The notes under the pieces: model-generated
Databases searched by the model: none
Told to the model about the DNA's origin: nothing
Seen by the model: the letters and a program-made list of their open reading frames with translations, nothing else
In this document: one piece after another, positions 1,249-61,100 of the stretch
Layout of the letters: each line of letters opens with the position of its first letter
Position numbering within the stretch: the stretch's first letter is position 1
Position numbers and translations under genes: made by a program
Assembly (NCBI RefSeq): GCF_035084215.1
Contig: NC_090340.1
Span: forward strand, 15,562,001-15,626,000
Origin: Heptranchias perlo
Lineage: Eukaryota
Direction: 5' to 3'
Length of the DNA: 64,000 bases

Positions 1249-1689
1249 CCATCCATACCCCCTTTTTCCGGGTTCTAGCTCCCTGACTCATAGGAACCCC
1301 GAGCGAAGCAGAGAGATCATCAGTGCAATTGCACGTTGGTACATTACTGAAACTGAGCTTGGATATTAAAAAACAGATTCAAAATTAACACATTTTCAAA
1401 TTCATTTGTCACTCTGCCTGTCAACAGGGAATGTTTCATTGCATTAATCACAGTGCTAGTATGTACACACGTGCATTGTGATAAACACAATGATCATGCC
1501 CAGTACACAGCAGTTTGCCAGGGTATTCACAATGTCAACTGTAACTTTGAGTTCAACACAAAACTAATGCCTATAACTATGATGGATGTCAGACAGACAC
1601 CTCTTGTGGTGGGGGGTGGGGGGTGGAGAGCACTAATGAGTCAGGGCTAAAGCTGTAAAGATTGAAAATGTTTAGTGAATCCTACTCAC

Positions 1690-1806
1690 CATCTGAATCA
1701 TAAAGGTCCAATGTGCCGCCGTTACTTGTTCCCCACTCAGGAACAAGATACAAGATGAACGCTATTTTCCGCCCTTCTAACTCGTCATCATGACAGAGCA
1801 ACACAT
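1690..1806 (-). CDS. OGFOD1: OGFOD1 coding exon 5 (117 nt), carrying the Fe(II)-binding HxD motif; gene continues beyond the left edge
   Basis: TTGCAG acceptor, (D)[44 protein letters not shown] donor. Near-identical to OGFOD1 [28 protein letters not shown]. Confidence 0.97.
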
Positions 1807-1959
1807 CTGCAACAGCATCGGGTTCAAAATTTCAGTGCAGTTGTTACCTAAACAATGCTTAATGATGCTTGAGCATTTCTTTCAGTTTAACAACTTTTAC
1901 TGATATATTCAGTTTTTTTTAAGTTTGAAGTCAGGATTTCTTTTTAAAAAGTGTTCCTC

Positions 1960-2300
1960 TGGGGCTCTGCTGATGGCTTAGTGAATAAACATCCAACATC
2001 CTGTACCACCAAGCTACACAGATCACGCAGATTGCTGATTCCATCACTGGTCTGTATGGAGTTAGCTGAGCCTAGCAATGGCAGCAATAGGAACATTCCA
2101 AATTGGCCTATTCAATGGCCCCTGCTGCAAAGTGTACAGGCAACAAGATTGTGCTCAGCTGTGATGACTCCATGGTCAAATACCCTTTAATACTCAGCGT
2201 CCAAACTCGTGAGGAATGGCATTTGGTGCGAAGCATTATACAACTGTCAACAGCCATGGAACTGTCACCGTTTTCAGGAGTGGGGGGGAAAAATGCTTCC
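1960..2300 (+). mobile_element. Decayed SINE-like interspersed repeat
   Basis: Shares blocks (GAGTTAGCTGA, GCTGTGATG) with 42410-42690; tRNA-like head is decayed. Confidence 0.5.
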
Positions 2301-2359
2301 TGATCAGTCATCTCAGGATTCCCCCCGAAAAAGACGGATTTCCTAATCCATACCAACAT

Positions 2360-2735
2360 CAGCTTGGCTTAGTTAGCAGCACTCTCACCTGTGAATCAGA
2401 TTATAAGCCCAAGTATCATTCCAACACTTGCGCACACAATCCAGGTGGACACTGCAAGAGTGCTGCATTGTTGAAGGTGCATCCTTCTGATGAAATTTCA
2501 AACTTCTGTTTGTTGTGGGTGTAGTGGCAATAAAGCAGGGAGTATCCTTAGTATCCTGGTCAGCAATGCCCCCTCATCCAACACCAAAAACAAATTAACT
2601 AATCATTCATCTCACTGCTATATGTAAAATAGCTGCTGCTTTTTACATAGCAAATCACTGCACGTCAAAGTAAGTCATTGTGTGTAAAGCATTTTGAGAC
2701 ATTTGTGAGGGACACAGTAAGGCACTGCAAATCAA
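2360..2735 (+). mobile_element. DeuSINE-like (SacSINE1-like) tRNA SINE with L2-type tail
   Basis: Head TGGCTTAGTTAGCAGCACTCTCACCT..GAATCAGA, central GAGTGCTGCATTG block, L2-like tail; related copies at 9090-9400 and 63495-63900. Confidence 0.6.
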
Positions 2736-2959
2736 TCTCTCTGGTCAATATTGTGAAATCTGATTCTGTGTGGCTCTGTTAACTACACATAAAAACAGCA
2801 TCAGATGTGGACTGAGCATTTCTCTCAACTCATCCAGTACATTAAACACAGCATCCAAAACAAATATAAAACTAGGAAACAAAATATATTTTTGCTGAGG
2901 TTTGTGTCATATTGGACCATTAAGATAACCTTAAAGACCCATCCTTATAGCAGTCTCAA

Positions 2960-3292
2960 ATTAATTGACTGCAATATTCCCAGGGTGTACCATAATACTA
3001 TCATGCATTATCTCTAGTGTGTACCACAGCTACAGCACACCAAATGTGCAATATCGCCAATGTAAAGCTACTTGTGCAATGTCCCTGTGCATACCACAAT
3101 GCCAGTGAAATGCCACATATGCAATATCCCCAGTGTAATGCAACAGTGCCAGTATGATATTACATGTGCAATATTCCCACTGTAATACAACAGATGCCAG
3201 TATGATATTACATGTGCAATACCGCCAGTGTGATATAACACATGCAGTATCTCCAGTAAAATGCCATGCATTCAATATCCCCAATGTGTACC
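2960..3292. repeat. Diverged tandem repeat (CAATATCCCCAGTGTAATGCAACA-like, about 28-48 bp units)
   Basis: Recurring TGCAATAT..CCAGT and TGCCAGTATGATATTACATGTGCAATA blocks. Confidence 0.7.
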
Positions 3293-3317
3293 ACACTACG
3301 TACTTAGTGTTATATAC

Positions 3318-3418
3318 CTGTGTATTCATACTTAGCGCAGGATAAATCCACTGTAGTTTCCAGTTTTACACCAGCAATATCTGACAGCCATGTACGAAAG
3401 TCTTCAAAGAGTACCTTC
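3318..3418 (-). CDS. OGFOD1: OGFOD1 coding exon 4 (101 nt)
   Basis: TTTCTCCAG acceptor, [33 protein letters not shown](D), GTATAT donor. Matches [34 protein letters not shown]. Confidence 0.96.
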
Positions 3419-3930
3419 CTGGAGAAAGACAGAGAGAGAAACAGCTGAGTGACTCTATCTTAGCTAGACCTGAATTAGATCACAAGTTTCACAAAATTTA
3501 AACACAGACTGGGGAGAGAAAAATTCCACAGGAGAACTGCAGATACCGCTTGAAAATGTAGTATATTACTTCAACAGGTACCTAATAAAGACCTGGGTTC
3601 ACACCAATACTGACAGTTCAGTGAAGGGTTGTAGGTGCTTTTTTCAAAGCGGGACACTGTGCAACAGATGATAAGTTTAGCCAAGCTCCTGCCTAGCAGC
3701 CCCCCCAAGTAAAGGATAAACATTTTATAGCACATATATTACAACAAACCCTGGGTGAAAAGAGTGCAAAACAATCAAATGATCCACTCCCCTTTAAGGA
3801 GGTAGTCAGTTGGGCTGATCAATCACTTTTATGGATCCAATCTATGCAATTGAAGTTTTAGCAATGAACTATTCAGAAATTGATTGAAAATGTGCAACGT
3901 CACTCTCTGCTGGTCAGGGAACTGTACTAC

Positions 3931-5450
3931 ATAAAAACAGAAAATTCTGGAGAAGCTCGGCAAATCAGGCAGCATCTGTGGAGAAAGAAAGGGAGTTAAC
4001 GTTCCAGGTCGAAGACCTTTTATCAGAACTGGAAGATGTTAAAAGAGTTAAAGTTTTTGAGCAAGTACAAAGCCAGGGAAAGGCGGGGGGAGGAGAGGAC
4101 AGAACAAAATGGAAGGTCTGTGATAGAGTGGAGGGCACGAGTGATTAAATGTCAAAAGGGATGATTGTGCAAGGCAAGGAAGGTGGTAATGGGACAGGTT
4201 AAGAAACAAAAGATTGATCAGGAGTAGCTGTGAATGGCAGCAGTAGAACCATTACCAGCAGTAGCTGACCGAAAAAATGGGAGCAGTTGTTATGGTCTGA
4301 AGTTATTGAAATCAATGCTGAGTCCGGAAGGTTGTAAAGTGCCTAATCGAAAGATGAGGTGCTGTTCCTCGAGCTTACATTGAGCTTCATTGGGATAGTG
4401 TACGAGGCCGAGGGCAGAGAGGTCAGAGTAGGAGTGGGAAAGGGAATTAAAATGACAAGCGGCCGACAGGTCAGGGTCACACCTGCGGACAAAGCAGAGG
4501 TGTTCAGCAAAGCAATCGCCCAGTCTGCGTTTGGTCTCCCCAGTGTAGAGGAGACCGCATTGTGTGCAGCGGATACAGGATACTAATTTGAAAGAAGTAC
4601 AAGTAAATTGCTGTTTCACCTGGAAGGATTATTTGGAGCTCTGGAAGGGAGGAGGTGAAGGGGCAGGTGGTGCATCTCCTGTGCTCACACGGGAAGATGC
4701 CGTGGGGAAGAGAGCAGGTATTGGGGGCGATGCAAGAGTGGACTAGGGTGTCGTGGAAGGAGCGGTCCCTTCGAAATGGTGAAAGGGGAGGGGAGGGGAA
4801 GATATGTTTGATGGTGGGATCACGTTGGAGGTGGCAGAAATGGCGGAGGATGATACATTGCGTGTGGAGGCTGGTGGGGTGGAAGGTGAGGATAAGGGGG
4901 TCCCTATCATGGTTCTGGGAGACCGCTCTGTCCTCGGCCTCTTACACTGTTCCAATGAAGCTCAAAGGAAGCTCAAGGAACAGCACCTCATCTTTCATTT
5001 CAGCACTTTACAACCTTCCGGACTCAACAGTGATTTCAATAACTTCAGATCATAACCACTGCTCCCATTTTTTCGGTCAGCTAGTGCTGGTAATGGCTCT
5101 GCTGCTTCCATTTACAGCTACTCCTGATCAAATTTTTGTTTCTTAACCTGTCCCATTACCACCCTCCTTGCCTTGCACCATCCTCCCTTTTGTCATTTAA
5201 TCACTCGTGCCCTCTACCCTATCACAGACCTCCTCTTTTGTTCTTTCCTCCCCTCCCCACCCCTCCTTTCCCTGGCTCTGTACTGGTTCAAAAACTTTAA
5301 CGCTTAACATCTTCCACTTCTGACGAAAGGTCTTCGACCTGAAACGTTAACTCTGTTTCTTTCTCCACAAGTGCAACCTGACTTGCTGAGCTTCTCCAGC
5401 ATTTTCTGTTTTTATTTTAGATTTCCAGCATCCGCAGTATTTTGCTTTTG
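3931..5450. mobile_element. Penelope-like element (GIY-YIG) with inverted pseudo-LTR arms
   Basis: Minus ORF 4290-4619 has CTQCGLLYTGETKRRLGDCFAEHL (GIY-YIG) and EQHLIFRLGTLQPSGL. 3931-~4420 is the reverse complement of ~4925-5415. Confidence 0.92.
5316..5352 (+). ncRNA. Minimal type I hammerhead ribozyme motif in the Penelope pseudo-LTR
   Basis: ACTT CTGACGA A AGGTC TTC GACCT GAAA CG TT AACT: intact CUGANGA/GAAA core, 5-bp stem II, palindromic ACGT stem III. Second, core-mutated copy on the minus strand at 3994-4030. Confidence 0.7.
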
Positions 5451-6700
5451 AACTCTACTACATGATCAGCAATTCCCTCATCTTGCTGTAAAACCAAAAA
5501 AATACAGTTGGTCTTAAGCTGACTGTAGTGTACCATCTGCCTTTGAAATCTGTCACCCTAAAGTTAACCAACGGTTTATGTCCCATCACATGCTGCACCT
5601 CCTTCCTGCAGAACGTATCAGAAAGGGGCCAAGAGGTGGGCAAATCTTGTCACTGAAAGTGTCAAGAGAGGGTCCACAAGGGAAAACATTAAGAAGAGGA
5701 TCCATCATTGAATTGTCAGATAGGTTTCCTCACCCTGTCAGAGATGTTGGAGATGACATGTCAGAGAACATATTGGGGAAAGATCATTCCTGAATATTTT
5801 CTAATGTTTTTGTAGTCTGCCAGGCAAAGACAATGACATACAAACTTTAGGGCCATTCAAAACATAGTTGGGTGCTAGAGGGATGAGTTTCAGTGGATCA
5901 AATGGCCTTGTATTATTCTTAACTTTTCTTGCAGTCCCATGTCTTATGGACAGGGTACTCACTGAAAGTGTTGGAGAGGGAGCACAATGCAGTAAGTCGG
6001 AGAGGCCGTCAGTGAATTTAATACATTTGTGACACAGTGCCAATGTGAAACCATGATGCAGTATCTCCAACGTAATACCGTTCATGCAATTGCAGAAAGG
6101 AAATGTGATTGAGGGTCCATGAGAAAACGTGTAAGGGGCTGGAACAGGAACACAATCGTTAGCAGCATGAAGGGCAAGGGTTATACAGGCCAGCATGAGG
6201 GTGAAGGGTTAAATTGGTCAATCGCAGCCAGAGAATAATGTCTAGTACACTAGAAAACTTTTTTTTAAAAAGGGCAAGAGAAAAAACTTTTACACGAGAT
6301 TCCCAGAGTTTACGCAGGAGTAAACAGCAGCTTGCAGAATTCACAAACAGAATGAAAGCAACAATAAATATGCTTCTGCACAGTGAGATGGCTTGGCCAC
6401 GTTTAATTTGCTTTTTAAAAAAGTTTTGCTAAAAATAATTTATTTTCTGCCAGTGAATTTTCCAACTGGTTTATTCCTACTACATTTCATCCAAATGTGC
6501 AGCAGTAGCTTGGTCTCCAGGGTCTTAGCTTCACCCTCTGACTAGTTTTCACAACATATACAAAGCAGGCTGGAGGCTACTCACAACTGAAAACCAGTGC
6601 TGCAGCTAACAAGCGAACCATGGCTGAAAACACAACACAATAATCCGGTTCAAATTGTGCCCTGAGCAAGCTCAGAGAAGATGGGTTCATAGTAACTCAC

Positions 6701-6747
6701 CTTAGTGCTGAGATATGATATTCTTTCCTCTTCCTGAGGTCGTCAGA
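6701..6747 (-). CDS. OGFOD1: OGFOD1 coding exon 3 (47 nt)
   Basis: CCTGACAG acceptor, SDDLRKRKEYHISAL(R), GTGAGT donor; frame-compatible with exons 2 and 4. Too short for the ORF track. Confidence 0.95.
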
Positions 6748-7633
6748 CTGTCAGGAAACAAAAACACAATCTTTACATCTAGAACCTCAATGTGTCAGTT
6801 CCATCTGAATATTTAAACCTAGAATTGTTATTAGCTCCACCTGATTACCTACAATGTATAACCTCAATCAGCTCTGAATATTCATATCTAGAACCTCATT
6901 CTATCGGTTCAAACTGAAATTTACATTCAGAATCACGTCTCACCAGTGCTATAGACAGCCTATTCAGGCATCACATGGAGGCTGGCTGTGTTTTATTCCC
7001 TCCACTCTCTGTTGAATATATTCATCAGATGTTGAAAAATGACCACGTCTTGTGGTCTGTGTTAAGAGAATAAAAATGACAGCAGTGATATAAGTGGATA
7101 AACTGGACAAGTAATTCACTTGTCCTAAATCACTCTAGCAAGTCACTTCCACACTGCTGCACAAGGGTCACCTCACCTGACATCATTCCAGGATTTCTGC
7201 TGTACAGAGACTTTCCTGCACTACAGTGACTACATTTCAAAAGTATTCAATTGGCTGCAAAGCGCTTTGGAGCATCCTGAGGTTGTGAAAGTTGCTACAT
7301 AAATGCAAGTTCTTTCTTTCATCTCACTCTATCACTCCAGTGTGCCCATTCTACTCTGCTGCACAGTGATCATCTTGCCTACATTACTCCAATGTATCTG
7401 GTCCATTCTGCTGTACAGAGATCTCCTCAGTCTACGCTACTGCTATGTGTCTGTTGTACCATGATACATGAGGTCCTTTCATTCAGTACAGTCTGTAAAC
7501 AATGTAACCAGCAACTTCACAGCTTAATTTCATTGATGTGCACATAGCAACAGTTCCTGTCTCTATCAACTTCACTTTGGTATCTCTCTCCACCCATCCC
7601 TTTCATTTGTTCCCTCCACAATCTGTTTCACAC

Positions 7634-7782
7634 CTGTTTGAATTTATAGAGATCGTTGGATTTTTCACAGAAGTTCAGCTGCAGAAGCTCATTCTGAAGC
7701 CCCTCCAGGAATGGTTGACTCTGGATAAAATTCGATATCACACAGTGTGTAAATGGCCGAGTGCCCACCAGCAGGCCCTGGT
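7634..7782 (-). CDS. OGFOD1: OGFOD1 coding exon 2 (149 nt)
   Basis: Polypyrimidine tract + TTTACAG acceptor. Encodes (D)[49 protein letters not shown] (cf. [35 protein letters not shown]). GT donor, phase 0. Confidence 0.96.
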
Positions 7783-8329
7783 CTGTAAAGGGAGAAGGAA
7801 AGACACAGTTAAATACCTTGGCGAGGAGCACTTTTGCTGCAACAAATTACAGACATGGGAACATTTTTGTAACCATTCAGCATCTTTGCAAAAGTGAAAA
7901 GGAAGTTAAATTGTCAAAGGTTGCTAAAAACTACAAAGAGGAAATATCAATACACTGCTACCAGTACCAACAGCTGCAATATCAGTTCCAGCCAAGCACT
8001 CTCTTATTTGTGTTGCCTGGTTTGGACTTGAATTCTCCAGGCCAGGTAAGAGCTCAGCATGTGTAGAGCTCCCCTCCTGGCCATTAATGTTTGAATGTTC
8101 AGATTGTGCATTCTTTGCATTTAAATCAAATCAAATGTGGTTAAGTTTAAAAAATGTTCAAGAGGTCTGATAGACTTCCCGAGCACTTTACGAATACAGG
8201 TTTGACACGAAACAGGAGTTACACCGCATTGTCTAACCCAAGTGCTGCATGGCTGCTCCCTCTCCAAAGTCAGATTGGACCCCAAATTCATACTGCAACC
8301 TTAGTTGTGCAGGCACTACTAACCTTCAA

Positions 8330-8690
8330 AGCAGGCATTGGTGGGCAACATCCATTTACCCTAACTCTTGGTTTTCTATCGATCAACCAACTTTGATTCC
8401 ATGCTGCTAGATTTCCAGACATGATAATACTTCCTCTTATGCCAAACACCTGAATTTTTCTAACAAGCCTTTTTGTGAGACCTATTAAATGCCTTCTGAA
8501 AATCCACACACACACCATAATGCATTCCTTTATCTATCCAGTCATCTCTGCAAAATAAAACCCTATTAAATTTGTCAAACACAACTTTCCTTTAGCAAAT
8601 CATGCTGACTGTCCTTGATTAACCCATATATTTCTAAATGCTCACTAATTTTATCTTGAATTATGATTCAACAACTTTGCCCAATTATCC
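8330..8690 (-). mobile_element. Old CR1 RT fragment
   Basis: Degenerate DFQKAF / GIRG / SWLIDRKPRVRVNG remnants. Confidence 0.7.
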
Positions 8691-8769
8691 CAAAGACCTT
8701 CACAACGTAGTCACTATTGTTATCTAGGCAAACACAGCAGTTGAATTTTCCACAGCAAGCTCCCACAAA

Positions 8770-9089
8770 CTCACCAAGGCTTCTTCGATAGCACCTTCCA
8801 AACCCACGACCTCTACCACCTAGAAGGACAAGAGCAGCAGGTACATGGGAACAACACCACCTGCATGTTCCCCTCCAAGTCATACACCATCCCGACTTGG
8901 AAATATATCGCCGATCCTTCATCGTCGCTGGGTCAAAATCCTGGAACTCCCTTCCTAACAGCACTGTGGGAGAACCGTCACCACACGGACTGCAGCGGTT
9001 CAAGGCGGCGGCTCAAGGGCAATTAGGGATGGGCAATAAATGCTGGCCTCGCCAGTGATGCCCACATCCCATGAATGAATTAAAAAAAA
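8770..9089 (+). mobile_element. 3' fragment of the second LINE family (CR1 superfamily, Zenon-like)
   Basis: Matches the reverse complement of 59470-59800, ending GGGCAATTAGGGATGGGCAATAAATGCTGGCC..CCCACATCCCATGAATGAAT + A tail. Confidence 0.9.
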
Positions 9090-9400
9090 CAGCAAAGAGA
9101 TGAAACACTAGTTAATATGTTTTTAGTGATATTGATCGAGGGATAAATGTGGGCAAGGACACTGGGAGAACTCCCTGCTCTTCTTCAAACAGTATAGTCA
9201 CATCTTTTACCTCCACCTAAACAGATAGATGGGGCTTCGGTTTCATGTCTCATGTCTCATCCAAAACATGGCACTCCAGCATTGCAGCGCTCCCTCAACA
9301 CTGCACTGAAGTGTCAGCCTAGGTTAGGTGCTCAAATCTGAGAGTGGGACTTGAACCCATGACCTTCTGAATGATATCAACAGCGGTCCCACTGACCCAA
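9090..9400 (-). mobile_element. DeuSINE-like tRNA SINE in OGFOD1 intron 1
   Basis: Minus-strand B box GGTTCAAGTCC (about 9348-9358) and CAGTGCAGTGTTGAGGGAGCGCTGCA block. Confidence 0.65.
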
Positions 9401-9509
9401 ATTGTTTCCTCGGCAGTGGCATCTCTGCTGAGCCTCTTGCCTCTCTTCGCCATCCGAGAGCTGCAGCCCTTGCTCCTGCTCCTAGCCCCATACCCTTGCT
9501 TCCCCTCAC

Positions 9510-9663
9510 CATGTGAGTACTCGAGCCCCCGGCTCCAGGCCTCGCTCACTCGCTCCTTCGCTTCCAGCAGCAGGGGGTTGAGTTCCGCGAGCTCCTGCCT
9601 CTTCAGCTGTCTCTTCCTCCCGGCCCCACTCTCCGGATCACTCCGCAGCCTCTTAGAGCTCAT
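9510..9663 (-). CDS. OGFOD1: OGFOD1 coding exon 1 (154 nt)
   Basis: ATG at 9663 gives MSSKRLRSDPESGAGRKRQLKRQELAELNPLLLEAKERVSEAWSRGLEYSH, which resembles the vertebrate OGFOD1 N-terminus (..QVAEAWSRRTPFSH). GTGAGG donor after 9510, phase 1; GC/CpG-rich context. Confidence 0.92.
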
Positions 9664-9820: not shown

Positions 9821-10880
9821 GCAGCGCATCCAGGGGTGGAGTGCACGAGCAGCAACGCTGCCAGTGGTGGAGTGCACGAACAACAGCGCTGCCAGTGGTG
9901 GAGTGCACGAACAACAGCGCTGCCAGGGGGTGGACTGCACGAACAACAGCGCTGCCAGTGGTGGAGTGCACGAACAACAGCGCTGCCAATGGTGGAGTGC
10001 ACGAGCAGCAACGCTGCCAGTGGTGGAGTGCACGAACAACAGCGCTGCCAGTGGTGGAGTGCACGAACAACAGCGCTACCAGTGGTGGAGTGCACGAACA
10101 ACAGCGCTGCCAGTGGTGGAGTGCACGAACAACAGCGCTGCCAGTGGTGCACGAACAACAGCGCTTCCAGTGGTGGAGTGCACGAACAACAGCGCTGCCA
10201 GGGGTGGACTGCACGAACAACAGCGCTTCCAGTGGTGGAGTGCACGAACAACAGCGCTGCCAGGGGTGGACTGCACGAACAACAGAGCTGCCAGTGGTGG
10301 AGTGCACGAACAACAGCGCTTCCAGTGGTGGAGTGCACGAACAACAGCGCTGCCAGGGGGTGGACTGCACGAACAACAGCGCTGCCAGTGGTGGAGTGCA
10401 CGAACAACAGCGCTGCCAGTGGTGCACGAACAACAGCGCTTCCAGTGGTGGAGTGCACGAACAACAGCGCTGCCAGGGGTGGACTGCACGAACAACAGCG
10501 CTTCCAGTGGTGGAGTGCACGAACAACAGCGCTGCCAGTGGTGGAGTGCACGAACAACAGCGCTGCCAGTGGTGGAGTGCACGAACAACAGCGCTTCCAG
10601 TGGTGGAGTGCACGAACAACAGCGCTGCCAGGGGTGGACTGCACGAACAACAGAGCTGCCAGTGGTGGAGTGCACGAACAACAGCGCTTCCAGTGGTGGA
10701 GTGCACGAACAACAGCGCTTCCAGTGGTGGAGTGCACGAGCAGCAACGCTGCCAGTGGTGACGTGCACGCGCAGCAATGCTGCCAGGGGTGGAGTGCATG
10801 AACAGCAGCGCTGCCAGTGGTGGAGTGCACGAACAGCAACGCTGCCAGTGGTGGAGTGCACGAACAGCAGCACTGCCAGG
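9821..10880. repeat. 31-bp-unit minisatellite (about 34 units)
   Basis: Unit GCCAGTGGTGGAGTGCACGAACAACAGCGCT with variants (GGGGTGGACTG, CTTCC, 26-nt deletion units). No stop codons on either strand. Confidence 0.97.
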
Positions 10881-35688: not shown

Positions 35689-35803
35689 TTTAGGGTTTAG
35701 GTTTAGGGTTAGCACTATGGTTTAGGATTAGAGATTGGGGTGATCGAATTAGGGTTAGGGTTAGAGGTTGGGGCGAGTGATTATGGTTAGGGGTTAGGGT
35801 TAG
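35689..35803 (+). repeat. Degenerate (TTAGGG)n-like tract
   Basis: TTAGGGTTTAGGTTTAGGGTTAG..TTAGGGTTAGGGTTAGAGG..GGTTAGGGGTTAGGGTTAG. Confidence 0.8.
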
Positions 35804-36002: not shown

Positions 36003-36042
36003 ATGCTTCCATGCGCACTGATCCTGGGGATTACACCCAGCG
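36003..36042 (+). pseudogene. Leader exon of the VJ-C1 pseudogene
   Basis: MLPCALILGITPS + G|GTACCT phase-1 donor. Joins the CCTGATAG acceptor at 36236 to give ..SAVGDF, a plausible signal cleavage region. Confidence 0.65.
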
Positions 36043-36245
36043 GTACCTTTATATATGCTTACAAGATAGTTAGAGTTAAGAACAATACACGCGTAGTTAT
36101 ATTATTTGATCAGTGCATTTATCTCCATTCGCGGTTATCGTCCTATATATTTTTACTGCTTTTAACCTCGTTTCTCTATTTAATTATCTGTACAATGAGA
36201 TGTTTATATTTGTGTGTACATTTGCTTCCTGATAGCTGTTGGGGA

Positions 36246-38090
36246 TTTTTTTATTCGTTCATGGGATGTGGGCTTCGCTGGCAAGGTCAGCAATTATTGC
36301 CCATCCCTAATTGTCCTTGAGAAGGTGATGGTGAGCCGCCCTCTTGAACCGCTGCAGTTCGTGTGGTGAAGGTTCTCCCACAGTGCTGTTAGGAAGGGAG
36401 CTCCAGGATTTTGACCCAGCGACGATGAAGGAACGGCGATATATTTCCAAGTCGAGATGGTGTGCGACTTGAAGGAGAATGTGCAGTGGGTTGTTCCCAT
36501 GTGCCTGCTGCTCTTGTCCTTCTAGGTGGTAGAGGTCGCGGGTTTGGGAGGTGCTGTCAAAGAAGCCTTGGCGAGTTGCTGCAGTGTATCCTGTGGATGT
36601 TACACACTGCAGCCACGGTGTGCCGGTGGTGGAGGGAATGCATGTTTAAGCTGGTAGATGAAGTGCCAATCAAACGGGCTGCTTTGTGTTGTCGAGCTTC
36701 TTGAGTGTTGTTGGACCTGCACTCATCCAGGCAAGTGGAGAGTATTCCATCACACTCCTGACTTGTGCCTTATAGGTGGTGGAAAGGCTTTGGGAAGTCA
36801 GGAGGTGAGTTACTTGTGGCAGAATACCCAGCCTCTGACCTGCTCTTGTAGCCACAGTATTTATATGGCTGGTCCAGTTAAGTTTCTTGTCAATGATGAC
36901 CCCCAGGATTTTGATGGTGAGGGATTCGGCGATGGTAATGCCGTTGAATGTCAAGGGGAAGTGGTTAGACTCTCTCTCGTTGGAGATGGTCATTGCCTGG
37001 CCCTTGTCTGGCACGAATATTACATGCCACTTATCAGCCCAAAGCAGGATGTTGTCCAGGTCTTGCTGCATGTGGGCACGGACTACTTCATTATTTGATG
37101 GGTTGCGAACGGAACTGAACACTGTGCAATCATCAGTGAACATCCCCATTTCTGACCTTAAGATGGAAGGAAGGTCATTGATGAAGCAGTTGAAGATGGT
37201 TGGGCCTAGGACACTGCCCTGAGGAACTCCTGTAGCAATGTCCTGGGGCTGAGATGATTGGCCTCCAACAACCACTACCATCTTCCTTTGTGCTAGGTAT
37301 GACTCCAGCCACTGGAGAGTTTTCCCCCTGATTCCCATTGACTTCAATTTTACAAGGGCTCCTTGGTGCCACACTCAGTCAAATGCTGCCTTGATGTCAA
37401 AGGCAGTCACTCTCATCTCACCTCTGGAATTCAGCTCTTTTGTCCATGTTTGGACCATGGCTGTAGGTCTGGAGCTGAGTGGTCCTGGCGGAACCCAAAC
37501 TGAGCATCGGTGAGCAGGTTATTGGTGAGTAAGTGCCACTTGATAGCACTGTCGATGACATCTTCCGTCACTTTGCTGATGATTGAGAGTAGACTGATGG
37601 GATGGTAATTGGCCGGATTGGATTTGTCCTGCTTTTTGTGGACAGGATATACCTGGGCAATTTTCCAAATTGTCGGGTAGGTGCCAGTGTTGTAGTTCTA
37701 CTGGAACAGTTTGGCTAGAGGCGGCTAGTTCTGGAGCACAAGTCTTCAGCACTACAGCCGGGATGTTGTTGAGGCCCATAGCCTTTGCTGTATCCAGTGC
37801 ACTCAGCTGTTTCTTGATATCACGTGGAGTGAACAAATTGGCTGAAGACTGGCTTCTGTAATGGTGGGGATATCTGGAGGCGGCCGAGATGGATCATCCA
37901 CTCGGCACTTCTGGCTGAAGATGGTTGCAAATGCTTCAGTCTTGTCTTTTGCACTCACATGCTGGACTCTGCCATCATTGAGGATGGGGATGTTTACAGA
38001 GCCTCCTCCTCCCGTTAGTTGTTTAATTGTCCACCACCATTCACGGCTGGATGTGACAGGACTGCAGAGCTTTGATCTGATCCGTTGATT
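36246..38090 (-). mobile_element. Zenon-like LINE, 5'-truncated, inserted in the V exon
   Basis: WHQGALVKL, QGSVLGP and FTDD in ORF 36670-37374; 3' tail at 36246; collinear with 59470-61330. Confidence 0.95.
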
Positions 38091-38387
38091 GTTGGCCAAA
38101 TTCCTCAACTCACGGTGGCGGTGAAAGAGACAAACATCACCTTCTTCTGCCCGTTCCACCTCTTTCAGAAGGAGTCAGATGTAAAGGTTCACTGGTGGAG
38201 ATAGGGTGACGAGGGTTCTTGGACGACGGGGCAGCGAATAAGAGACAGTATAAGCTTCTGAAAAAAGGGGGAGCCATTTTCAATCTCTTGAATGTGAGTT
38301 TTGAGGACTCTGGCCGCTATTACTGCTCCGTGTATTGTCGGGGAAGAATGTTTGGGAATGGAACCGGCTCAGAGTTCCATGAGCCTG
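38091..38387 (+). pseudogene. Ig V-set exon with germline-joined J-like motif (main part, 3' of the LINE insertion)
   Basis: VGQIPQLTVAVKETNITFFCPF..VHWWR*(TAG 38202-38204)GD, a frameshift at about 38205-38218, then LDDG..FNLLNVSFEDSGRYYCSVYCRGRMFGNGTGSEFHEP with G|GTGAGT donor. Has canonical Cys, Trp, DSGxYYC and FGxG. Confidence 0.9.
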
Positions 38388-38512
38388 GTGAGTCGCTGGT
38401 GCTGACTCTGTGTCAATTGTGCAACAGGTATAATACCAAAGGGATACAGAAGTGTCCGAGAATGGGACACCAGCCCAATTTTTTGCGTCCAGTGACAGTA
38501 TGAAGCCACTCT

Positions 38513-38790
38513 AGGGGTGCATTTGTCGATTTACACTGCCGCTTTCCTCCGTGCGCTCTGTGCAATGTAATCCTCCATATTTTAAAAAAAATGGTTTACC
38601 ATTTTCTTACACAGTGCAAGGGTGGAAATCTTCCCCCTTCAATGGCAATGGGGTAGATCTCAACTTTGTGCATTATGTGATAGCAAGTTCAATGGGAATA
38701 AAAACCGGGGGAGATGTAAAACGGGTTGGCAACTGGCTATCATCCGTTTTATTCTATGGCACAAAGTCAAACATGTACTGCAATGTGCGC
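38513..38790. mobile_element. One or two MITEs in the V-C1 intron
   Basis: GGGGTAGATCTCAACTTTGTG..CACAAAGTCAA (38650-38770), same family as 43195-43358. Confidence 0.6.
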
Positions 38791-38994
38791 TAATTGTGGG
38801 CTGATTTCTGGAGGTAAGATTGCTTTGTTTGTTACTGGCTAAATATTCTTTTAGAAAACTATTAAAATTTCACTGGAAAAAGCAAACATAGGGAATCCAT
38901 GTTGTGGGGAAAAGTTGGACTGGTCACTGTATGTAGCAACATTCTAAATACTGGCATGAAATTTTCCTGTGGAAATGGTACATCTTTTCATGGT

Positions 38995-39640
38995 ATAATG
39001 GTATGTTACAGCACAGAAGGGAGCCATTTGGCCCATCGTGCCTGTGTCGGCTCTTTGAAAGCTATCCAATTAGTCCCACTCCCCTGCTCTTCCCCCGTTG
39101 CCCTGTAAATGTTTTCTCTTTTGAAAGTTATTATTGAATCTCCTTCCACGGCTCTTTCAGGCAGTGCATTCCAGATCATAACAACTCTCTGCGTAAAATT
39201 GTTTTCTCATGTTGCCTCTGGTACTTTGGCAATCACCTTAAATCTGTGTCCTTTGGTTACCCACCCTTCTGCCACTGGAAACAGTTTCTCTTTATTTACT
39301 TTATCTAAACCCTTCAAGATTTTGAACACCTCTATCAAATCTCCTCTTAACCCTATCTGCTCTAAGGAGAACAACCCCAGCCTCTCCAGTCTATCCACAT
39401 AACTGAAGTCCCTCATCCCTGGTATCATTCTGGTAAACCTCTTCTGCACCCTCTCTAAGCCCTTGACATCCTTCCTATAGTGTGGTGCCCAGAATTGAAC
39501 ATAATACTTTAGCGGAGGCCTAACCTATCTTTTATAAAGGTTTAGCATAACTTCCTTGCTTTTGCACTCTATGCCCCTATTAATAAAGTCCAGGATTCCA
39601 TATGCTTTTTTAACAGCCTTTTCAATTTGTCCTGGCACCT
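38995..39640 (-). mobile_element. CR1 3' fragment
   Basis: RFTRMIPGMRDFSYVDRLERLGLFSLE; 3' GGGCCAAATGGC. Confidence 0.92.
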
Positions 39641-40039
39641 TTTGGATCAGCTTTCTGATTTCAGTAGAAACAAGACCACAAGAGACCTTTGTGAATACAT
39701 GTCCCTACACATAGCGGCCACAGGAAACCCTCCCTCAGGTTCCTTTCCACACTTTTTATTTCCACGGGGATTCCGCCGAAAAGCCACGAATTCCCGTTTT
39801 TCCGGGGTTTCCGCGGCTCTTCCGCCGAAGTTACGGGGGACCAGCGGGAGAACCCCGGTGGAAGTTTTTATGATGTCCTTGTGAAATAAGGAATAGTCCG
39901 CTGTTTTGAAGTTTTAAAGTTCCTGGAATATTAGCAGGTTCCTGATAATCATATGTATATAAATTATATGACATGAGCGAAAGTTTCAAGCTGTTTGAAA
40001 CGAATGGAAGATATTAGAGCAGAAATTAGCATCCCAACC

Positions 40040-40628
40040 GTTCTGACGGGAATACTTAAGGAGCTGAAGGGAGCAGTTGGGAGATTTTTTTTTACACACA
40101 GGGTTGTTGGGACACGGAATACCCTTTCAGAAACAGTAATGGAAGCAGAATCTATAATCACTTTTTTAAAAGGAAAGTGGATAAATATTTGAAAAATTAC
40201 AAATGAAAAGGGTATGGGCAGAGGAATGAGGCTAAGTGGGTTGCTCTTTCAGAGCCCACACAGGCACACTGAGCCAAATGGACTCCTGCACCGTAAAGTC
40301 CTATGATTCCATAAACAGATAACCATGATTCGGTAATCAGAGGAAAACAGATTTAAGATCATTGGCAAAAGAACCAGAGATGAGATGATGAGATTTTTTT
40401 TTACACAGCAAGTTGTTATGATCTGGAATGCACTGCCTGAAAGGGTGGTAGAAGCAGATTCAATAGTAACTTTCAAAAGGGAATTGGATATATACTTAAA
40501 AATGTAAATGTTGCAGGGCTATGGGGAAAGAACAAGGGAGTGGGACTAATTGGATAGCTCTTTGAAAGAGCCAGAACAGGTACGATGGGCCGAATAGCCT
40601 CCTTCTGTGCTGTTTGATTCTGATTCTA
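40040..40628 (+). mobile_element. Two tandem CR1 3' fragments
   Basis: FFTHRVV / FFTQQVV..WNALPE motifs, each followed by a GGCCnAATGG-type end and CTATGATT-type tail. Confidence 0.8.
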
Positions 40629-40821
40629 CCAAATATGGTACTTTTCTCTCTCCGTTATGGAGCCTATAATTTCTACCTTAAAATTTAGTATTATTTAAAA
40701 ACACGGAAATTAAAAACACAATGTGAAACGGATCCGTCCTAACTCGTGTTCTAAATTATAGACTACAGAAATAAAATAATAACTAGTATTTCAAACACAA
40801 AAGCAATTTTTTCCACCCAAG

Positions 40822-41122
40822 CTCGGCCCACTCCTCTGAGGATCGTCTTGGTTAGGTCTGAATTCCGACCATCCACCTCTCTGACTCTCCTGTGTAAAAC
40901 AGCTAAGTTTTACCCTGAGGATCTCAATGTCACTTGGTATAAAGACAACGAAGAAATTGTAACCGGGATCAATACTACTAAACAGCGAAGCAAGTTGGGA
41001 CTGTATGAGGCTTCCAGCTCTTTAATGGATACGGCGCCTGTCCGGCAGTGGAACTATTCACAGCTGCCGAGTGTCTCATGTCTCTCTTCAGACTCCAGCC
41101 AGCGTGAATTAAAACTTTGAAG
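40822..41122 (+). pseudogene. Ig C1-set exon
   Basis: (A)RPTPLRIV..SLTLLCKTAKFYPEDLNVTWYKD..GLYEASSSL.., a +1 frameshift at about 41046, then SGTIHSCRVSHVSLQTPASVN*(TAA 41110-41112)NFE with G|GT donor. C-x4-FYP..W and CxVxH are C1-set hallmarks. Confidence 0.9.
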
Positions 41123-41418
41123 GTACTGTCAATATATTTTTCAGACACGTTGGCTCGATCACAGTTTTTCCCAATACAAAGACAAGTTTGTGAACACTTC
41201 TGTGAACATTTGATGCTACTGCACTTGTTAATTACATTGAGGATCTGTATGTCAGATTGTTGGCATTTTATTTAATTATTTTTTGAAAGATATCTGCATT
41301 TATGTTAAATGACCTTTACATGATTAGTTCTGATCCCGCGTATCCCCGGGTTTTCTTGCTAGCTTAATTGACACTATTGCCCGTCGGCCTTACATTTCCG
41401 TTACTCCGTGTTTGCTAG

Positions 41419-41520
41419 TGCTGCTAACGACTCTGTCCTCTTTTTGGTGCCTCGATATTTAGGGGGTATATTGGTCATAGCGGTGCTGATAGCCTTCGTT
41501 GGGAATTATTTTAAACTGAG
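41419..41520 (+). pseudogene. Probable transmembrane exon of the VJ-C1 pseudogene
   Basis: AANDSVLFLVPRYLGGILVIAVLIAFVGNYFKL followed by a strong AG|GTAATG donor. The acceptor phase is off by one relative to the C1 exon (another lesion or wrong acceptor). Confidence 0.6.
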
Positions 41521-42694
41521 GTAATGTCAAACGTGAGATATACATTTATTACCAGAGCGCAATGTCGCTTTACACATCAAATCTTTGTGGTAAATAAGGC
41601 AATAACGTCGCGTTAACTGATAGGAGATGAAAATGAATTTTCTTTGAAGGTGGACATTTATATCACAATTTACACATTGGAAGTAATGAGGTGTCTATCC
41701 AAGGTCAATAGTTGGCGCAGAATTCTGTCAACTATATGTCCAGACCAACAGTACCCCACAAACGTCAAAGATCTCCTCTGGTTCCTGTGTGTTGCAAAAA
41801 TATGTGGAGGATTTCCATGTTCTAGGGAAATAGTAGAAATGTTTTAAGAGAAGCTGTTTAGGATTTCACTAGAAATAGTAACCGGAGGAAATCTCTCCCC
41901 CCCCCCCCCCGCCCCACCCCGGTTATTAAACAGGAATCCAAATTCAACCTCCTCGTTATCGGACTAATTATTTGTGTCAGGACAATTATTTTAAAGGAGG
42001 AAGAATTGCGCTGATGCATTTTAAGGAGTGTTTGTGATTTGGCTGCAAGTAGCCAGAGCGGGTTCCTCCAATCGCATTGTGATTTACCAGGTCTGCTCAG
42101 TTATGAAGCTGCTTTTCTTGATTCAGTGCATATTGAGCAACTCAATACAATATCCAGAACCAGAGTTTACATTTAGGCGCGGTTGCAGAGAAAATGTGTC
42201 AGCAAGGAGCAATATAATCAATCTACCAGATGTTTGTTTATTGGTAAACTGAAAGTAGATTACGTTTGTTCCAATAGTTGGATTGGAGTCTGATTTAAAC
42301 ATGTTTACAGTGATCACAGTGCTATAAACTGGGAGTAATCTGATAAACTCGTTAAAGTTTGAAACACATACGTTACCCAATCTGTTCCTGGTTAAAAATA
42401 ATCAATAACCAATGGGCCAATCGCCAAATGCTGTGTGTACGGACCGGGAAGATCGCAGGTTCCATCCCAGGACTATGCTGAACTAGCTGATTTCTGCTAT
42501 GGGGCAGTAGGGTCTCATTAGATTGTTCTTGGGCTCGAGAGATAGTTGATGGGGGTGATAGGGAATTCAGCCAGGTTAAACTGATCCATATCCAATTATT
42601 TATTCGGAAAGACTTGACGTGTGAAGTTCAGGTGAATGCGGGATACTTGGCTGTGATGTCCCCCTCCCTTGAGTCCGAAAACCTGCTGTCACTT

Positions 42695-44420
42695 AGGGGT
42701 ATAGATTCATTTTGGACAGTGGCGTAAAATGGCAGCCCCTTTTACGCTCCGTCCGATTTAAATTTTCACTGAAGTCAATGGAAAAGAAAATCAGGCAGAA
42801 TCCGAAAAGAATTGGGTCTGGCCAGTTTTGCACTATCGCCCGAGCTGAATTTATACCCCTTACTGTCTAGACTCAACCTTAAAAGTTGGTCACTTGGGAT
42901 TCATACTAGAGGGTGTATTGCCAACATTGAAACAGGAGTCAGCACATTTGGGAGAGGACGGGTAACATTGGAAAGGAAGATGTATGTGTGTGGGGGAGGG
43001 GGGTATTAATCGATCAAAGTAATCAGTACTTGAATCCACTGCCAATATGAAGTGTTGTGTTTCTTTACCAGGTCATGCAAGAAATAACTGAATGGAACCT
43101 GACCTACTGTGCTGAAAATTTCAGTCTCCAAGGAAATTGTAAGACTGGTATACTGTACAGAGTATGACTCTCAAGCCTCAATGTGTGTGTCATGGGGGTA
43201 GATTTTGACTTTGTGCAGATATTGTAAAACGGGTGTTTTACATCTCTCTTGATTTTATTTCCATTGAAGTCAATCAGAGAGAGAGAGAGAGATGTAAAAT
43301 GAGCTGCCGATTTGCTGTCACCCGTTTTATGCTATCACACAAAGTCAAAATCTACCCCATTTTTCAGGTACCACCTGATATCTAGATTCAATAGTTATAC
43401 TGTTACCCTCCACAAGCTGTATTACAAGTATTACTAATTTGATTTTTTTCTATACATGTTTTTTTTTTGCAAAAGTTGGTAGCCGAACTTCTGGTTAAAA
43501 TCACAGAAATAAATATTCGATAATGATGACCAGTGATTGAATTAATAAAAGCAGAGGATATTGGGATAGATCTTGACTTTGTACAATAGTGTAAAACGGG
43601 TGATAGGGAGTTGGCGCCCGTTTCACATCTCCCCATTTCTATTTCCCTTGAAGTCAGTGGAAATAAAAATAGGGGGAGATGTAAAACGGGCCGCCGACTA
43701 CCTATCACCCGTTACAGACTCTCGTACAAAGTCAAGATCTATCCCCTGTTCTCCTTAGAAGAAAACGTTCCAATGTGTGTTTAATAGGAATAAACTTGGA
43801 CGTGTTTGAATTTTCTTTTAACTTCCATGGATACATTTGGGGAGGTAGGATAACTGTTATTGTGTTTAAATTAGTACGTGTTATATACAAAGTATTGAGA
43901 GTATTACTTCCACTACAAAGCACATGGGGGTAGATTTTCAACTTGCCACCCAGGCGTAAAACTGGCGTTTTGAATCGGTCATTGTTATAGGAACCGCCAG
44001 ATTTTCAATTCCATCTTATGCACCAGCTCAGTAAGTTGAAAATCTAACCCATCCTGCTGTGTAATGCCAGCCTTTTATTGGAATTTGTTATTTCTGTTTG
44101 TACTTTCATGGAGTTTATTCAATAAAAGATTTTCAGTGCAATGTCTCTTAAGACAAAGTGATTATTTAAATTATTTCCTTGGCATAAATGGTAAGAATAT
44201 AGGAAATGAGAATTTAAATAAGAATTTAAAAAATATTGCAGTCTTCAGAGTCCATAGGGGTCATTTTAACAGTGGGCGACGGTGTAAAACGGGCGATATA
44301 GAATTAGCCGCCTGTTATTATACACCACGGCCGATTTTCCTTTCCACTGAAGTCATTGAAAATCGGGCTTGGCGTATAACGGACGGCCAAATCGATATCG
44401 TCCAAAGTTAAAATTACCCT
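42695..44420. mobile_element. Cluster of palindromic MITEs (about 42695-42860, 43195-43358, 43562-43746, 43926-44050, 44256-44420)
   Basis: TIRs such as GGGGTAGATTTTGACTTTGTG / CACAAAGTCAAAATCTACCCC and GGGGATAGATCTTGACTTTGTAC / GTACAAAGTCAAGATCTATCCCC; internal GTAAAACGGG and central TGAAGTCA. Confidence 0.8.
43072..43087 (+). pseudogene. Probable terminal coding exon (RSCKK-stop)
   Basis: Strong TGTTTCTTTACCAG acceptor; phase 2 matches the TM donor; TAA at 43085-43087. Candidate AATAAA signals downstream, e.g. 44121. Confidence 0.5.
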
Positions 44421-58194: not shown

Positions 58195-61100
58195 TAGCTA
58201 TACAGCAGTGATAACTGGGGACTTCATAATATGGACTGGGATAACAATAATAGTATAAGGGGCACAGAGGGGGACGAATTATTTAAATGTGTTGAGGATA
58301 ACTTTCTTGACCAGTATGTTTCTGGCCCAATGAGGAAGGAGGCATTGCTGGACTTGATTGTAGGGAATGAGATGGGCCAAGTGGAACAATTGTCAGTGGG
58401 GGACCATTTAGGGAGCAGCGATCATAGTATCATGAGGTTTAGAATAGCAATGGAAAAGGACATTGACCACTCTAAAGTAAAAATATTCAATTGGAGAAGG
58501 GCCAATTTCACTGGATGAGAACAGATCTGACCCGGGTAAATTGGAATCAAAGATTGGCAGGCAAAACTGTAATTGAACAGTGGGTGACCTTTAAGGAAGA
58601 GATGGTTCGGATACAGTCTAGGCACATTCCCACGAGGCAGAAAGATAGGGCAACTAAAGCCAGAGCTCCCTGGATGACAAAAGAGGTAGTGAGTAAGATA
58701 AAATGGAAAAAAGGGGCATATGACAGATGTCAGGTTGATAACATGAGTGAGAACCAGGCAAAATATAGAAAGTTCAGAAGGGAAGTGAAAAAGGGAAATA
58801 AGAGGGGCAAAGAGAGAGTATGAGAATAGACTGGCGGCCAACAACAAGGGGAATCCAAAAGTCTTCTATAGGCATGTAAACAGTAAAAGGGTAGTAAGAG
58901 GAGGGGTGGGGCCGATTAGGGACCAAAAAGAGATCTACTCATGGAGGCAGAGGGCATGGCTGAGGTACTAAATGAGTACTTTGCATCTGTCTTTACCAAG
59001 GAAGAAGATGCTGCCAGAGTCTCAATAAAGGAAGATATTATTGAGATACTGGATGGGCTCAAAATTGATAAAGAAGAGATACATGAAAGGCTGACTGTGC
59101 TTAAAGGCGATAAGTCACCCGGTCCGGATGGGATGCATCCTAGGTTGCTGAGGGAAGTAAGGGTGGAAATTGCAGAAGTATTGGCCATAATCTTCCAAAC
59201 ATCCATAGATACAGGGGTGGTGCCAGAGGACTGGAAAATTGCAAATGTTACACCCTTGTTCTAAAAAGGGTGTAAGGATAAACCCAGCAACTATAGGCCA
59301 GTCAATTTAACCTCAGTGGTGGAGAAACTTGTAGAAACGATAATCCAGGACAGAATTAACAGTCACTTGGACGAGTGTGGATTGATTAGGGAAAGTAAGC
59401 ACGGATTTGTTAAAGGCAAATTGTGTGTAACTAACCTGTTAGAGTTTTTTGATTGATTTATTTATTTATTTTTTAAATTCGTTCACGGGATGTGGGCGTC
59501 GCTGGCAAGGCCAGCATTTATTGCCCATCCCTAATTGCCCTCGAGAAGGTGGTGGTGAGCCGCCTTCTTGAACCGCTGCAGTCCGTGTGGTGACGGTTCT
59601 CCCACAGTGCTGTTAGGAAGGGAGTTCCAGGATTTTGACCCAGCGACAATGAAGGAACGGCGATATATTTCCAAGTCGGGATGGTGTGTGACTTGGAGGG
59701 GAACGTGCAGGTGGTGTTGTTCCCATGCGCCTGCTGCTCTTGTCCTTCTAGGTGGTAGAGGTCGCGGGTTTGGGAGGTGCTGTCGAAGAAGCCTTGGCGA
59801 GTTGCTGCAGTGCATCCTGTGGATGGTGCACACTGCAGCCACAGTGCGCCAGTGGTGAAGGGAGTGAATGTTTAGGGTGGTGGATGGGGTGCCAATCAAG
59901 CGGGCTGCTTTATCTTGGATGGTGTCGAGCTTCTTGAGTGTTGTTGGAGCTGCACTCATCGAGGCAAGTGGAGAGTATTCCATCACACTCCTGACTTGTG
60001 CCTTGTAGATGGTGGAAAGGCTTTGGGGAGTCAGGAGGTGAGTCACTCGCCGCAGAATACCCAGCCTCTGACCTGCTCTCGTAGCCACAGTATTTATATG
60101 GCTGGTCCAGTTAAGTTTCTGGTCAATGGTGACCCCCAGGATGTTGATGGTGGGGGATTCGGCGATGGTAATGCCGTTGAATGTCAAGGGGAGGTGGTTA
60201 GACTCTCTCTTGTTGGAGATGGTCATTGCCTGGCACTTATCTGGCGCGAATGTTACTTGCCACTTATGAGCCCAAGCCTGGATGTTGTCCAGGTCTTGCT
60301 GCATGCAGGCTCGGACTGCTTCATTATCTGAGGGGTTGCGAATGGAACTGAAAACTGTGCAGTCATCAGCGAACATCCCCATTTCTGACCTTATGATGGA
60401 GGGAAGGTCATTGATGAAGCAGCTGAAGATGGTTGGGCCTAGGACACTGCCCTGAGGAACTCCTGCAGCAATGCCCTGGGGCTGAGATGATTGGCCTGCA
60501 ACAACCACTACCATCTTCCTTTGTGCTAGGTATGACTCCAGCCACTGGAGAGTTTTCCCCTTGATTCCCATTGACTTCAATTTTACTAGGGCTCCTTGGT
60601 GCCACACTCGGTCAAATGCTGCCTTGATGTCAAGGGCAGTCACTCTCACCTCACCTCTGGAATTCAGCTCTTTTGTCCATGTTTGGACCAAGGCTGTAAT
60701 GAGGTCTGGAGCCGAGTGGTCCTGGCGGAACCCAAACTGAGCATCGGTGAGCAGGTTATTGGTGAGTAAGTGCCGCTTGATAGCACTGTCGACGACACCT
60801 TCCATCACTTTGCTGATGATTGAGAGTAGACTGATGGGGCGGTAATTGGCCGGATTGGATTTGTCCTGCTTTTTGTGGACATGACATACCTGGGCAATTT
60901 TCCACATTGTCGGGTAGATGCCAGTGTTGTAGCTGTACTGGAACAGCTTGGCTAGAGGCGCAGCTAGTTCTGGAGCACAAGTCTTCAGCACTACAGCCGG
61001 GATGTTGTCGGGGCCCATAGCCTTTGCTGTATCCAGTGCACTCAGCCGTTTCTTGATATCACGTGGAGTGAATCGAATTGGCCGAAGACTGGCTTCCGTG

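Follow-up and report, generated by a model that had tools for sequence, protein, structure and literature searches.

The window analysed here is a 64,000-nucleotide stretch of the Heptranchias perlo genome (contig NC_090340.1, positions 15,562,001 to 15,626,000). On its plus strand lies a real gene, now a dead copy, with the exon order leader, V, C1 and transmembrane (TM), all joined by phase-1 junctions. These exons had been proposed in a preliminary description of the stretch and all four were found, the C1 exon by a match to the Pfam C1-set profile (E 1.3e-8). The leader exon (36003..36042, with a GT donor at 36043) comprises 13 codons and a split codon, and its length and pattern fit the first 13 residues of two horn shark protein models, P0001 and P0006. 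The first 10 nt of the V exon (36236..36245) follow an acceptor AG at 36234-36235, where the end of the intron resembles the alternative-acceptor extension of P0006. The remainder of this single-exon V(J) domain lies at 38086..38387, with a YYC at 38318, the sequence N-G-T-G at 38357-38368 and a donor GT at 38388; it is 73% identical to the V domain of P0001 over 94 columns. Further downstream are the C1-set exon (40822..41122, donor GT 41123) and the TM exon (41419..41520, Arg codon 41453). A possible short tail exon at 43072..43087, in frame with the TM donor and coding for five residues and a stop, is unverified.

The interval from 36246 to about 38085, taken earlier for an intron, is a 1.85 kb long interspersed nuclear element (LINE) inserted within the V exon. 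The element (36246..38085) is 5′-truncated, lies on the minus strand and is 93% identical to a copy at 59470-61332; its plus-strand 3′ boundary is uncertain by a few bases. Contigs of sequencing reads end at its edges, at 36247 and 38087. No target-site duplication was found for this insertion: a 6-nt repeat at the LINE was considered and rejected, the horn shark orthologue showing it to be coding sequence. A long, almost open reverse-transcriptase frame of the same LINE family is present at 59470-62030.

Besides the LINE, the lesions of the gene are two stop codons, two frameshifts and, at the TM acceptor, a defect of 1 nt. In the V exon there is a stop (TAG) at 38202 and a frameshift near 38214-38218, and in the C1 exon a frameshift near 41037-41043 and a stop (TAA) at 41110. 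The C1 exon described earlier is present, but its CxVxH motif (41065-41079) can be read only in a shifted frame. The TM exon also stands, with the amendment that the homologous exon begins at about 41419 and includes the Arg; for the tail exon no homologue was found among the fetched paralogue loci. The TM acceptor is 34 nt from the Arg codon, the distance being 29, 32 or 35 nt in all 13 paralogue exons compared, so that the window copy is one base off. From just 5′ of the Arg onward, the exon aligns without gaps with these 13 exons, and it keeps both the Arg and the 16-residue distance from it to a D/N-H pair found in all of them. An acceptor at 41461 was also considered; it is in frame, yet it loses the conserved Arg, and the paralogues use the upstream position. 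Some 200 nt upstream of the leader, at 35722-35803, there is a CpG-rich stretch of degenerate telomere-like hexamer repeats.

Horn shark P0001 has an open leader-V-C1 and, judged from sequence comparison, is a clear orthologue of the window gene. The two share 55 of 69 C1 residues, against at most 57% identity between the window gene and any paralogue in its own genome among the matches scored, and they are sisters with support of 100/98-100/100 in LG+G4 trees and 100/95 under C20. Because the orthologue joins these domains in one open frame, we conclude that the V and C1 exons in the window belong to one gene, as had been supposed. The P0001 and P0006 models both stop before any TM. Read contigs from four sequencing runs (X1-X4) cover none of the leader, C1, TM and tail exons of the window gene and were not used as evidence for it.

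The window gene is one of some 95-100 V-C1 units on its own contig, C18, where they form two tandem clusters. A search of the genome (G000) with the window C1 exon, in which the best 150 of 180 candidates were scored, gave at least 99 matches, 99 of 99 on C18. The V domain of P0001 gave 97, of which 95 are on C18, two of these being the window gene's own fragments; the others fall in an I-set repeat gene on contig C30 and on contig C1. A C1 exon on the same strand follows 86 of 94 V exons at a median gap of 1.5 kb. The first cluster (2.7-6.0 Mb) holds 60 V and 66 C1 exons and the second (14.5-15.64 Mb) 33 of each; a lone divergent member (L034/L126) lies at 19.02-19.03 Mb, 3.4 Mb from the second cluster. 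Around most units 10 kb was fetched, about ten near-identical duplicates being left out. Open, full-length V and C1 exons are present at 67 of the fetched loci (44, 22 and 1 by cluster), which reduce to 61 distinct sequences at 98% identity and 46 at 90%. On average, two of the sequences are 40% identical in V and 51% in C1. There is one C1 per V in the genes and proteins of the family, P0010 having the look of two fused models. Two pairs of blocks on C18 (3.48-4.02 versus 4.28-4.85 Mb, and 14.68-14.79 versus 14.98-15.12 Mb) are 97.6-99.8% identical, and could represent recent duplication or an assembly artefact.

By their TM exons, the 67 open loci divide into 11 of a short-tail Arg type, 42 of a second type and 14 for which the 10 kb fetched yielded no TM. 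The Arg-type exon has its Arg near the outer edge of the membrane segment and D/N-H 16 residues further on, and the tail is short where protein models exist. At 19 of the 42 loci of the second type, exons with immunoreceptor tyrosine-based inhibitory or switch motifs (ITIM/ITSM) lie inside the fetched 10 kb. In a set of 65 database proteins, ITIM/ITSM occur in 25, on tails of at least 40 residues, and 11 proteins are of the Arg type; nine of these 11, apart from models of this genome's own genes, come from seven named shark species. The window TM exon aligns with the Arg type and keeps both the Arg and its 16-residue spacing, and for this reason the window gene was likely an activating, short-tail member.

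Four inhibitory/activating pairs are 92-99% identical in the V exon and 86-96% in the C1 exon, with adjacent introns at 52-73% against a background of 52%. The confinement of identity to exons points to gene conversion, and an exon-limited signature of this kind is reported for Xenopus CEACAM pairs in the portion of PMC5112662 available to us. For the intact inhibitory locus L093, contigs from each of the four runs span the V-C1, C1-TM and three tail junctions; four of the five have GT-AG ends, and one contig carries V, C1 and TM together. The four runs represent one sample whose RNA status is a guess, and at 92% likeness the contigs may derive from close paralogues of L093.

We consider it probable (roughly 0.8) that this family is a large cartilaginous-fish set of single-exon V(J)+C1+TM proteins that would work as paired immune receptors, the window copy being an activating one. 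This reading follows from the occurrence of opposite tails on near-identical ectodomain exons with divergent introns. Matched ectodomains with opposite tails, ITIM/ITSM members, short-tail members with a charged TM and clustering of the genes are all present, and the layout fits the definition of paired receptors given in the accessible part of PMC3533184. The steps that follow (ligand, SHP, adaptor and decoy) are modelled on the account in the same part of that paper. The unrearranged V domain would recognise a cell-borne or microbial ligand. Long-tail members would use their ITIM/ITSM to recruit SHP-1/2 and dampen the cell; short-tail members would use the TM Arg to bind, and then fire, an adaptor that bears immunoreceptor tyrosine-based activation motifs, of the FcR-gamma/CD3-zeta kind. 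Gene conversion would hold the activating ectodomain matched to the inhibitory one, which is to be expected where pathogens take advantage of the inhibitory receptor, and diversity would come from gene number and birth-and-death turnover, not from RAG rearrangement. The antigen-receptor-like relic of the preliminary description is thus better viewed as part of what looks like a paired innate receptor family of some 95-100 units, with ITIM/ITSM tails set against short Arg tails.

Several observations weigh against the paired-receptor reading. Only four of the eight pairs tried are close; V identities of 47-66% occur among the rest. An Arg at the outer edge of the TM is present in some long-tail members as well, so that the Arg by itself is not diagnostic. 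The pooled ratio of non-synonymous to synonymous substitution among close paralogues, 0.59 for V (24 pairs) and 0.48 for C1 (27 pairs), gives no sign of domain-wide positive selection and speaks against a strong arms race. Recent segmental duplicates at 97.6-99.8% identity make up part of the gene count, and some of them could be duplicated in the assembly only. Finally, the activating call for the window copy is drawn solely from its decayed TM exon, the horn shark models ending without one.

A search with the family profile yielded 76 proteins, of which 61 belong to cartilaginous fish (230-573 bits), 12 are of SIRP type (85-128 bits) and three are immunoglobulin light chains (IgL; 58-64 bits). 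Four of the 61 were in the query and seven were treated as models of this genome's own genes; the remainder come from 16 named sharks, rays and the chimaera Callorhinchus. All 150 scored matches of the Callorhinchus protein in the Heptranchias genome are on C18, and the protein set suggests that, within most species with chromosome-level assemblies, the family genes lie on one chromosome. The earlier view of the window gene as a pseudogene from a little-described VJ-C1 family of chondrichthyans is borne out by its lesions and by these relatives in sharks, rays and a chimaera.

Trees of V and of C1 domains, put forward in the preliminary description as a nesting test, were built with thinned family rows. 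Outgroups were taken from the same genome (IgL, IgM, IgW, T-cell receptor (TCR)-like V, UrIg-like, NKp30-like, B7-H6-like, tapasin-like and major histocompatibility complex (MHC) sequences, and other VJ-C1 loci), and mammalian SIRPs were the only SIRPs included. Apart from UrIg2, NKp30 and B7, the outgroup labels, among them tapasin-like L205 and L206, are our own presumed assignments from motifs. The family is monophyletic in C1 (97/91 under LG+G4 and 100/99 under C20) and in V (96/93 and 100/100 in two trees). Neither clade is nested in IgL or B7-H6, nor in TCR, UrIg, NKp30, tapasin or SIRP, and the B7-H6-like (L202) and tapasin-like (L205, L206) V and C1 rows fall outside it. The family V lies outside the Ig/TCR/UrIg group (82/84). 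The sister of the family C1 shifts with the model, from the first C1 domain of SIRP (C1-1; 93/87) under LG+G4 to a group of Ig and UrIg C1 domains (85/88) under LG+C20. Approximately unbiased (AU) tests rejected no sister relation tried (IgL V, p 0.076; IgL C1, p 0.28; SIRP V, p 0.27; B7-H6-like C1, p 0.21; tapasin-like C1, p 0.16).

These results bear on the proposal that the family is the cartilaginous-fish branch of SIRP, a V-C1 form of SIRP-alpha/beta that would read CD47 or a similar self marker on myeloid cells. Such a branch would be compatible with paired-receptor function. Mammalian SIRPs are the top matches of the profile outside chondrichthyans, ahead of IgL; the first C1 domain of SIRP-alpha is best matched in this genome by family members; the tail motifs are like the ITIM/ITSM of SIRP-alpha; and the C1-1 sister relation under LG+G4 and the AU result for V agree with the proposal. 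We nevertheless regard it as doubtful. The family has one C1 domain where SIRP has two, the C1 link is lost under LG+C20, SIRP C1-1 then going with a multi-C1 gene on C12, and SIRP V groups with IgL/UrIg or NKp30-like rows and not with the family. The activating members carry an outer Arg (13 of 13 short-tail exons) in place of the mid-TM Lys of SIRP-beta (P0076). Syntaphilin-family genes, the one neighbourhood marker used, are on C22 and C3 and not on C18; SNPH, of that family, flanks human SIRP. The comparison as a whole is with mammalian SIRPs.

The J-like end of the V exon is informative on a second alternative. YYC and a J-like motif do share one exon, with no recombination signal sequence (RSS) after the second Cys, as first described. 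The motif had been read as FGNGTG; its G-x-G is present, but the F lies two residues early and the J-Phe register reads N-G-T-G. With positions counted back from the donor, 43 of 71 V exons have N where the J-Phe would stand and one has F; an N-x-S/T sequon begins there in 34, and G-x-G is in the J register in 44. In germline-joined IgL controls from this genome the position holds F, F, Y and S. A glycosylation sequon here likely disfavours an interface of the VH/VL type. RSS-like sites were found at 0 of 72 family V exon ends, in a scan comparable to one that caught only two of five TCR-like controls; the co-occurrence of Cys, G-x-G and donor in one open V exon is stronger evidence against a split V/J. 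At the start of the window V coding region (38111-38138) there is an RSS-like heptamer-12-nonamer, one of three in the window at the threshold used and likely due to chance.

Were the family to work as a dimeric antigen receptor, its layout of a one-exon VJ, one C1 and a TM would be that of a TCR chain, and the G-x-G of 44 V exons, the LG+C20 grouping with Ig/UrIg C1 and the AU values for IgL V and C1 would suit it. We think this unlikely in view of the J-Phe position and its sequons, of ITIM/ITSM tails, which are foreign to antigen receptors, and of the place of V outside the Ig/TCR/UrIg group; moreover, the TCR-like V array, the IgL clusters and the UrIg-like genes are all on contigs other than C18.

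Database names for the family are scattered over SIRP-alpha-like, tapasin-related, NCR3LG1-like, Ig lambda-like, CD276 and MHC-like. With its genes filed under five or more unrelated names, the family has been hidden in public annotations. Taken at face value, the automatic names would make it a germline-joined IgL, a TCR, or a paralogue of B7-H6 or tapasin. For this we see very little probability, even though Ig lambda-like, NCR3LG1-like, tapasin-related and CD276 are among the names, a B7-H6-like V-C1 pair lies on C18 at 37 Mb and B7-H6 is among the tied top structural matches. The names are inconsistent inside one clade. Germline-joined IgL controls keep F or Y at the J position in three of four cases and place elsewhere in the tree, and IgL constant exons are terminal, without a TM, while the family has TM and tail exons. 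Nesting with B7-H6 or tapasin is contradicted by the outside position of their V and C1 rows, and the finding of no RSS-like site at the 72 V exon ends speaks against a TCR. Structure does not discriminate: the predicted fold of P0012 (mean predicted local distance difference test score 78.5) is a V+C Ig tandem whose matches are tied over Rst, B7-H6 (Z 16.2, root-mean-square deviation 4.3, 190 aligned), B7-H3, Neph1 and TCR/Fab chains. In the ESM Atlas, SIRP-beta-like, tapasin-related and Ig-kappa-like clusters are tied.

Large paired-receptor clusters govern natural killer and myeloid cells in mammals, birds and bony fish; beside LILR/KIR and CEACAM they include NITR and CHIR, and we know of no comparable cluster defined in sharks. 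LILR/KIR are built of C2 domains and NITR of V and I domains. The Heptranchias family shares with the LILR/KIR and CEACAM clusters a tandem arrangement, birth-and-death turnover, opposite tails and exon-limited conversion; it differs from LILR/KIR and NITR in an ectodomain made of VJ and C1-set, the antigen-receptor domain pair, its second domain being C1-set, unlike the I-type of NITR. SIRP is alike in its J-like single-exon V, C1-set domain and inhibitory (ITIM/ITSM) and short-tail activating forms, and unlike in having two C1 domains, a Lys and few genes, against one C1, an outer Arg and about 100 genes here; there is no stable grouping in trees, and the neighbourhood differs on the single marker used. 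NKp30 (NCR3) has an activating TM of the Arg type and, like the family, a single-exon VJ with a G-x-G-T strand, but it lacks C1, and the NKp30-like genes of this genome have a cluster of their own on C42 and a clade of their own. An Arg is also found in the activating TM of LILRA, according to the part of PMC3533184 available. UrIg/UrIg2, as described in the accessible text of PMC12227049, likewise combine a non-rearranging VJ exon with C1 domains in sharks, but have three or more C1, form dimers, are few and lie near the MHC or an antigen-receptor complex; the UrIg-like genes of this genome are separate from the family in clade and contig. PRARP/VJC1 genes share the non-rearranging VJ-C1 layout and differ in being described, in the portion of PMC10751288 at hand, as linked to the MHC or its paralogues. 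The family is not described in these portions of either paper on non-rearranging shark VJ-C1 genes, and the CD28 family of PMC11599192, in the part available, is V-only and distinct from it. In the open literature searched, supplements not covered, we found no account of a paired set of about 100 genes with unsplit VJ and C1, and prior mention is possible. Paired receptors are already known; the new element is a set of this size made from unsplit VJ and C1.

OGFOD1, which the preliminary description took as a synteny anchor, does have exons in the window, on the minus strand; it extends from window position 9663 to C18 15.544 Mb, with family members on either side. NUDT21 (15.65 Mb) and BBS2 (15.76 Mb) lie beyond it, and the three genes, which are neighbours on human 16q13, anchor the family locus. 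We propose, tentatively and at a little less than even odds, that cartilaginous fish possess their own, undescribed leukocyte receptor complex of about 100 germline activating and inhibitory VJ+C1 receptors, which arose before sharks and chimaeras diverged, is no orthologue of SIRP and has its anchor at OGFOD1-NUDT21-BBS2. If so, the VJ-C1 module would have diversified by duplication and conversion as an innate system alongside the RAG-based receptors. The family offers concrete candidates in the form of matched inhibitory/activating pairs open to expression and testing, and it adds some 100 unsplit VJ and C1 sequences to the question of the ancestor of the RAG-invaded gene and of SIRP. The window copy, as a pseudogene, is of interest chiefly as a pointer to the family.

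The part of OGFOD1 in the window is its 5′ part (1637..9663, minus strand), with the start codon at 9663 and exons near 7650-7790, 3340-3420 and 1637-1810. It was assigned by a PF13661 match and by a scan for OGFOD1 motifs; the PF10637 profile had no match in the window, nor did it match the control. Directly upstream of exon 1, at 9822-10879, there are 34 copies of a 31-nt tandem repeat.

Elsewhere in the genome, single-exon VJ + C1 genes outside the family are found on C11 at 48.14 Mb (L198) and 54.2-54.4 Mb (L193/L194) and on C36 at 19.19 Mb (L204), and are candidate genes of the PRARP/VJC1 type; the V at 54 Mb on C11 has a CD28-like proline-rich loop, yet a C1 comes next. UrIg-like V-C1-C1(-C1) genes on C42 at 3.89 Mb (L192), on C14 at 59.91 Mb (L195) and on C1841 (L210) form one V clade (100/100), and the best solved-structure match of L192 is UrIg2; only two genes of UrIg type are named in the accessible part of PMC12227049. 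The genes L200/L201 on C12 at 29.0-29.4 Mb hold many tandem C1-like exons and are possible relatives of SIRP or B7-H6; one joins SIRP C1-1 under C20 (91/92). The B7-H6-like V-C1 genes on the family's own contig (L202/L203, 36.95-37.0 Mb) are duplicated, and the NKp30-like single-exon VJ genes L132, L134, L157 and L158 cluster on C42 at 5.82-5.98 Mb.

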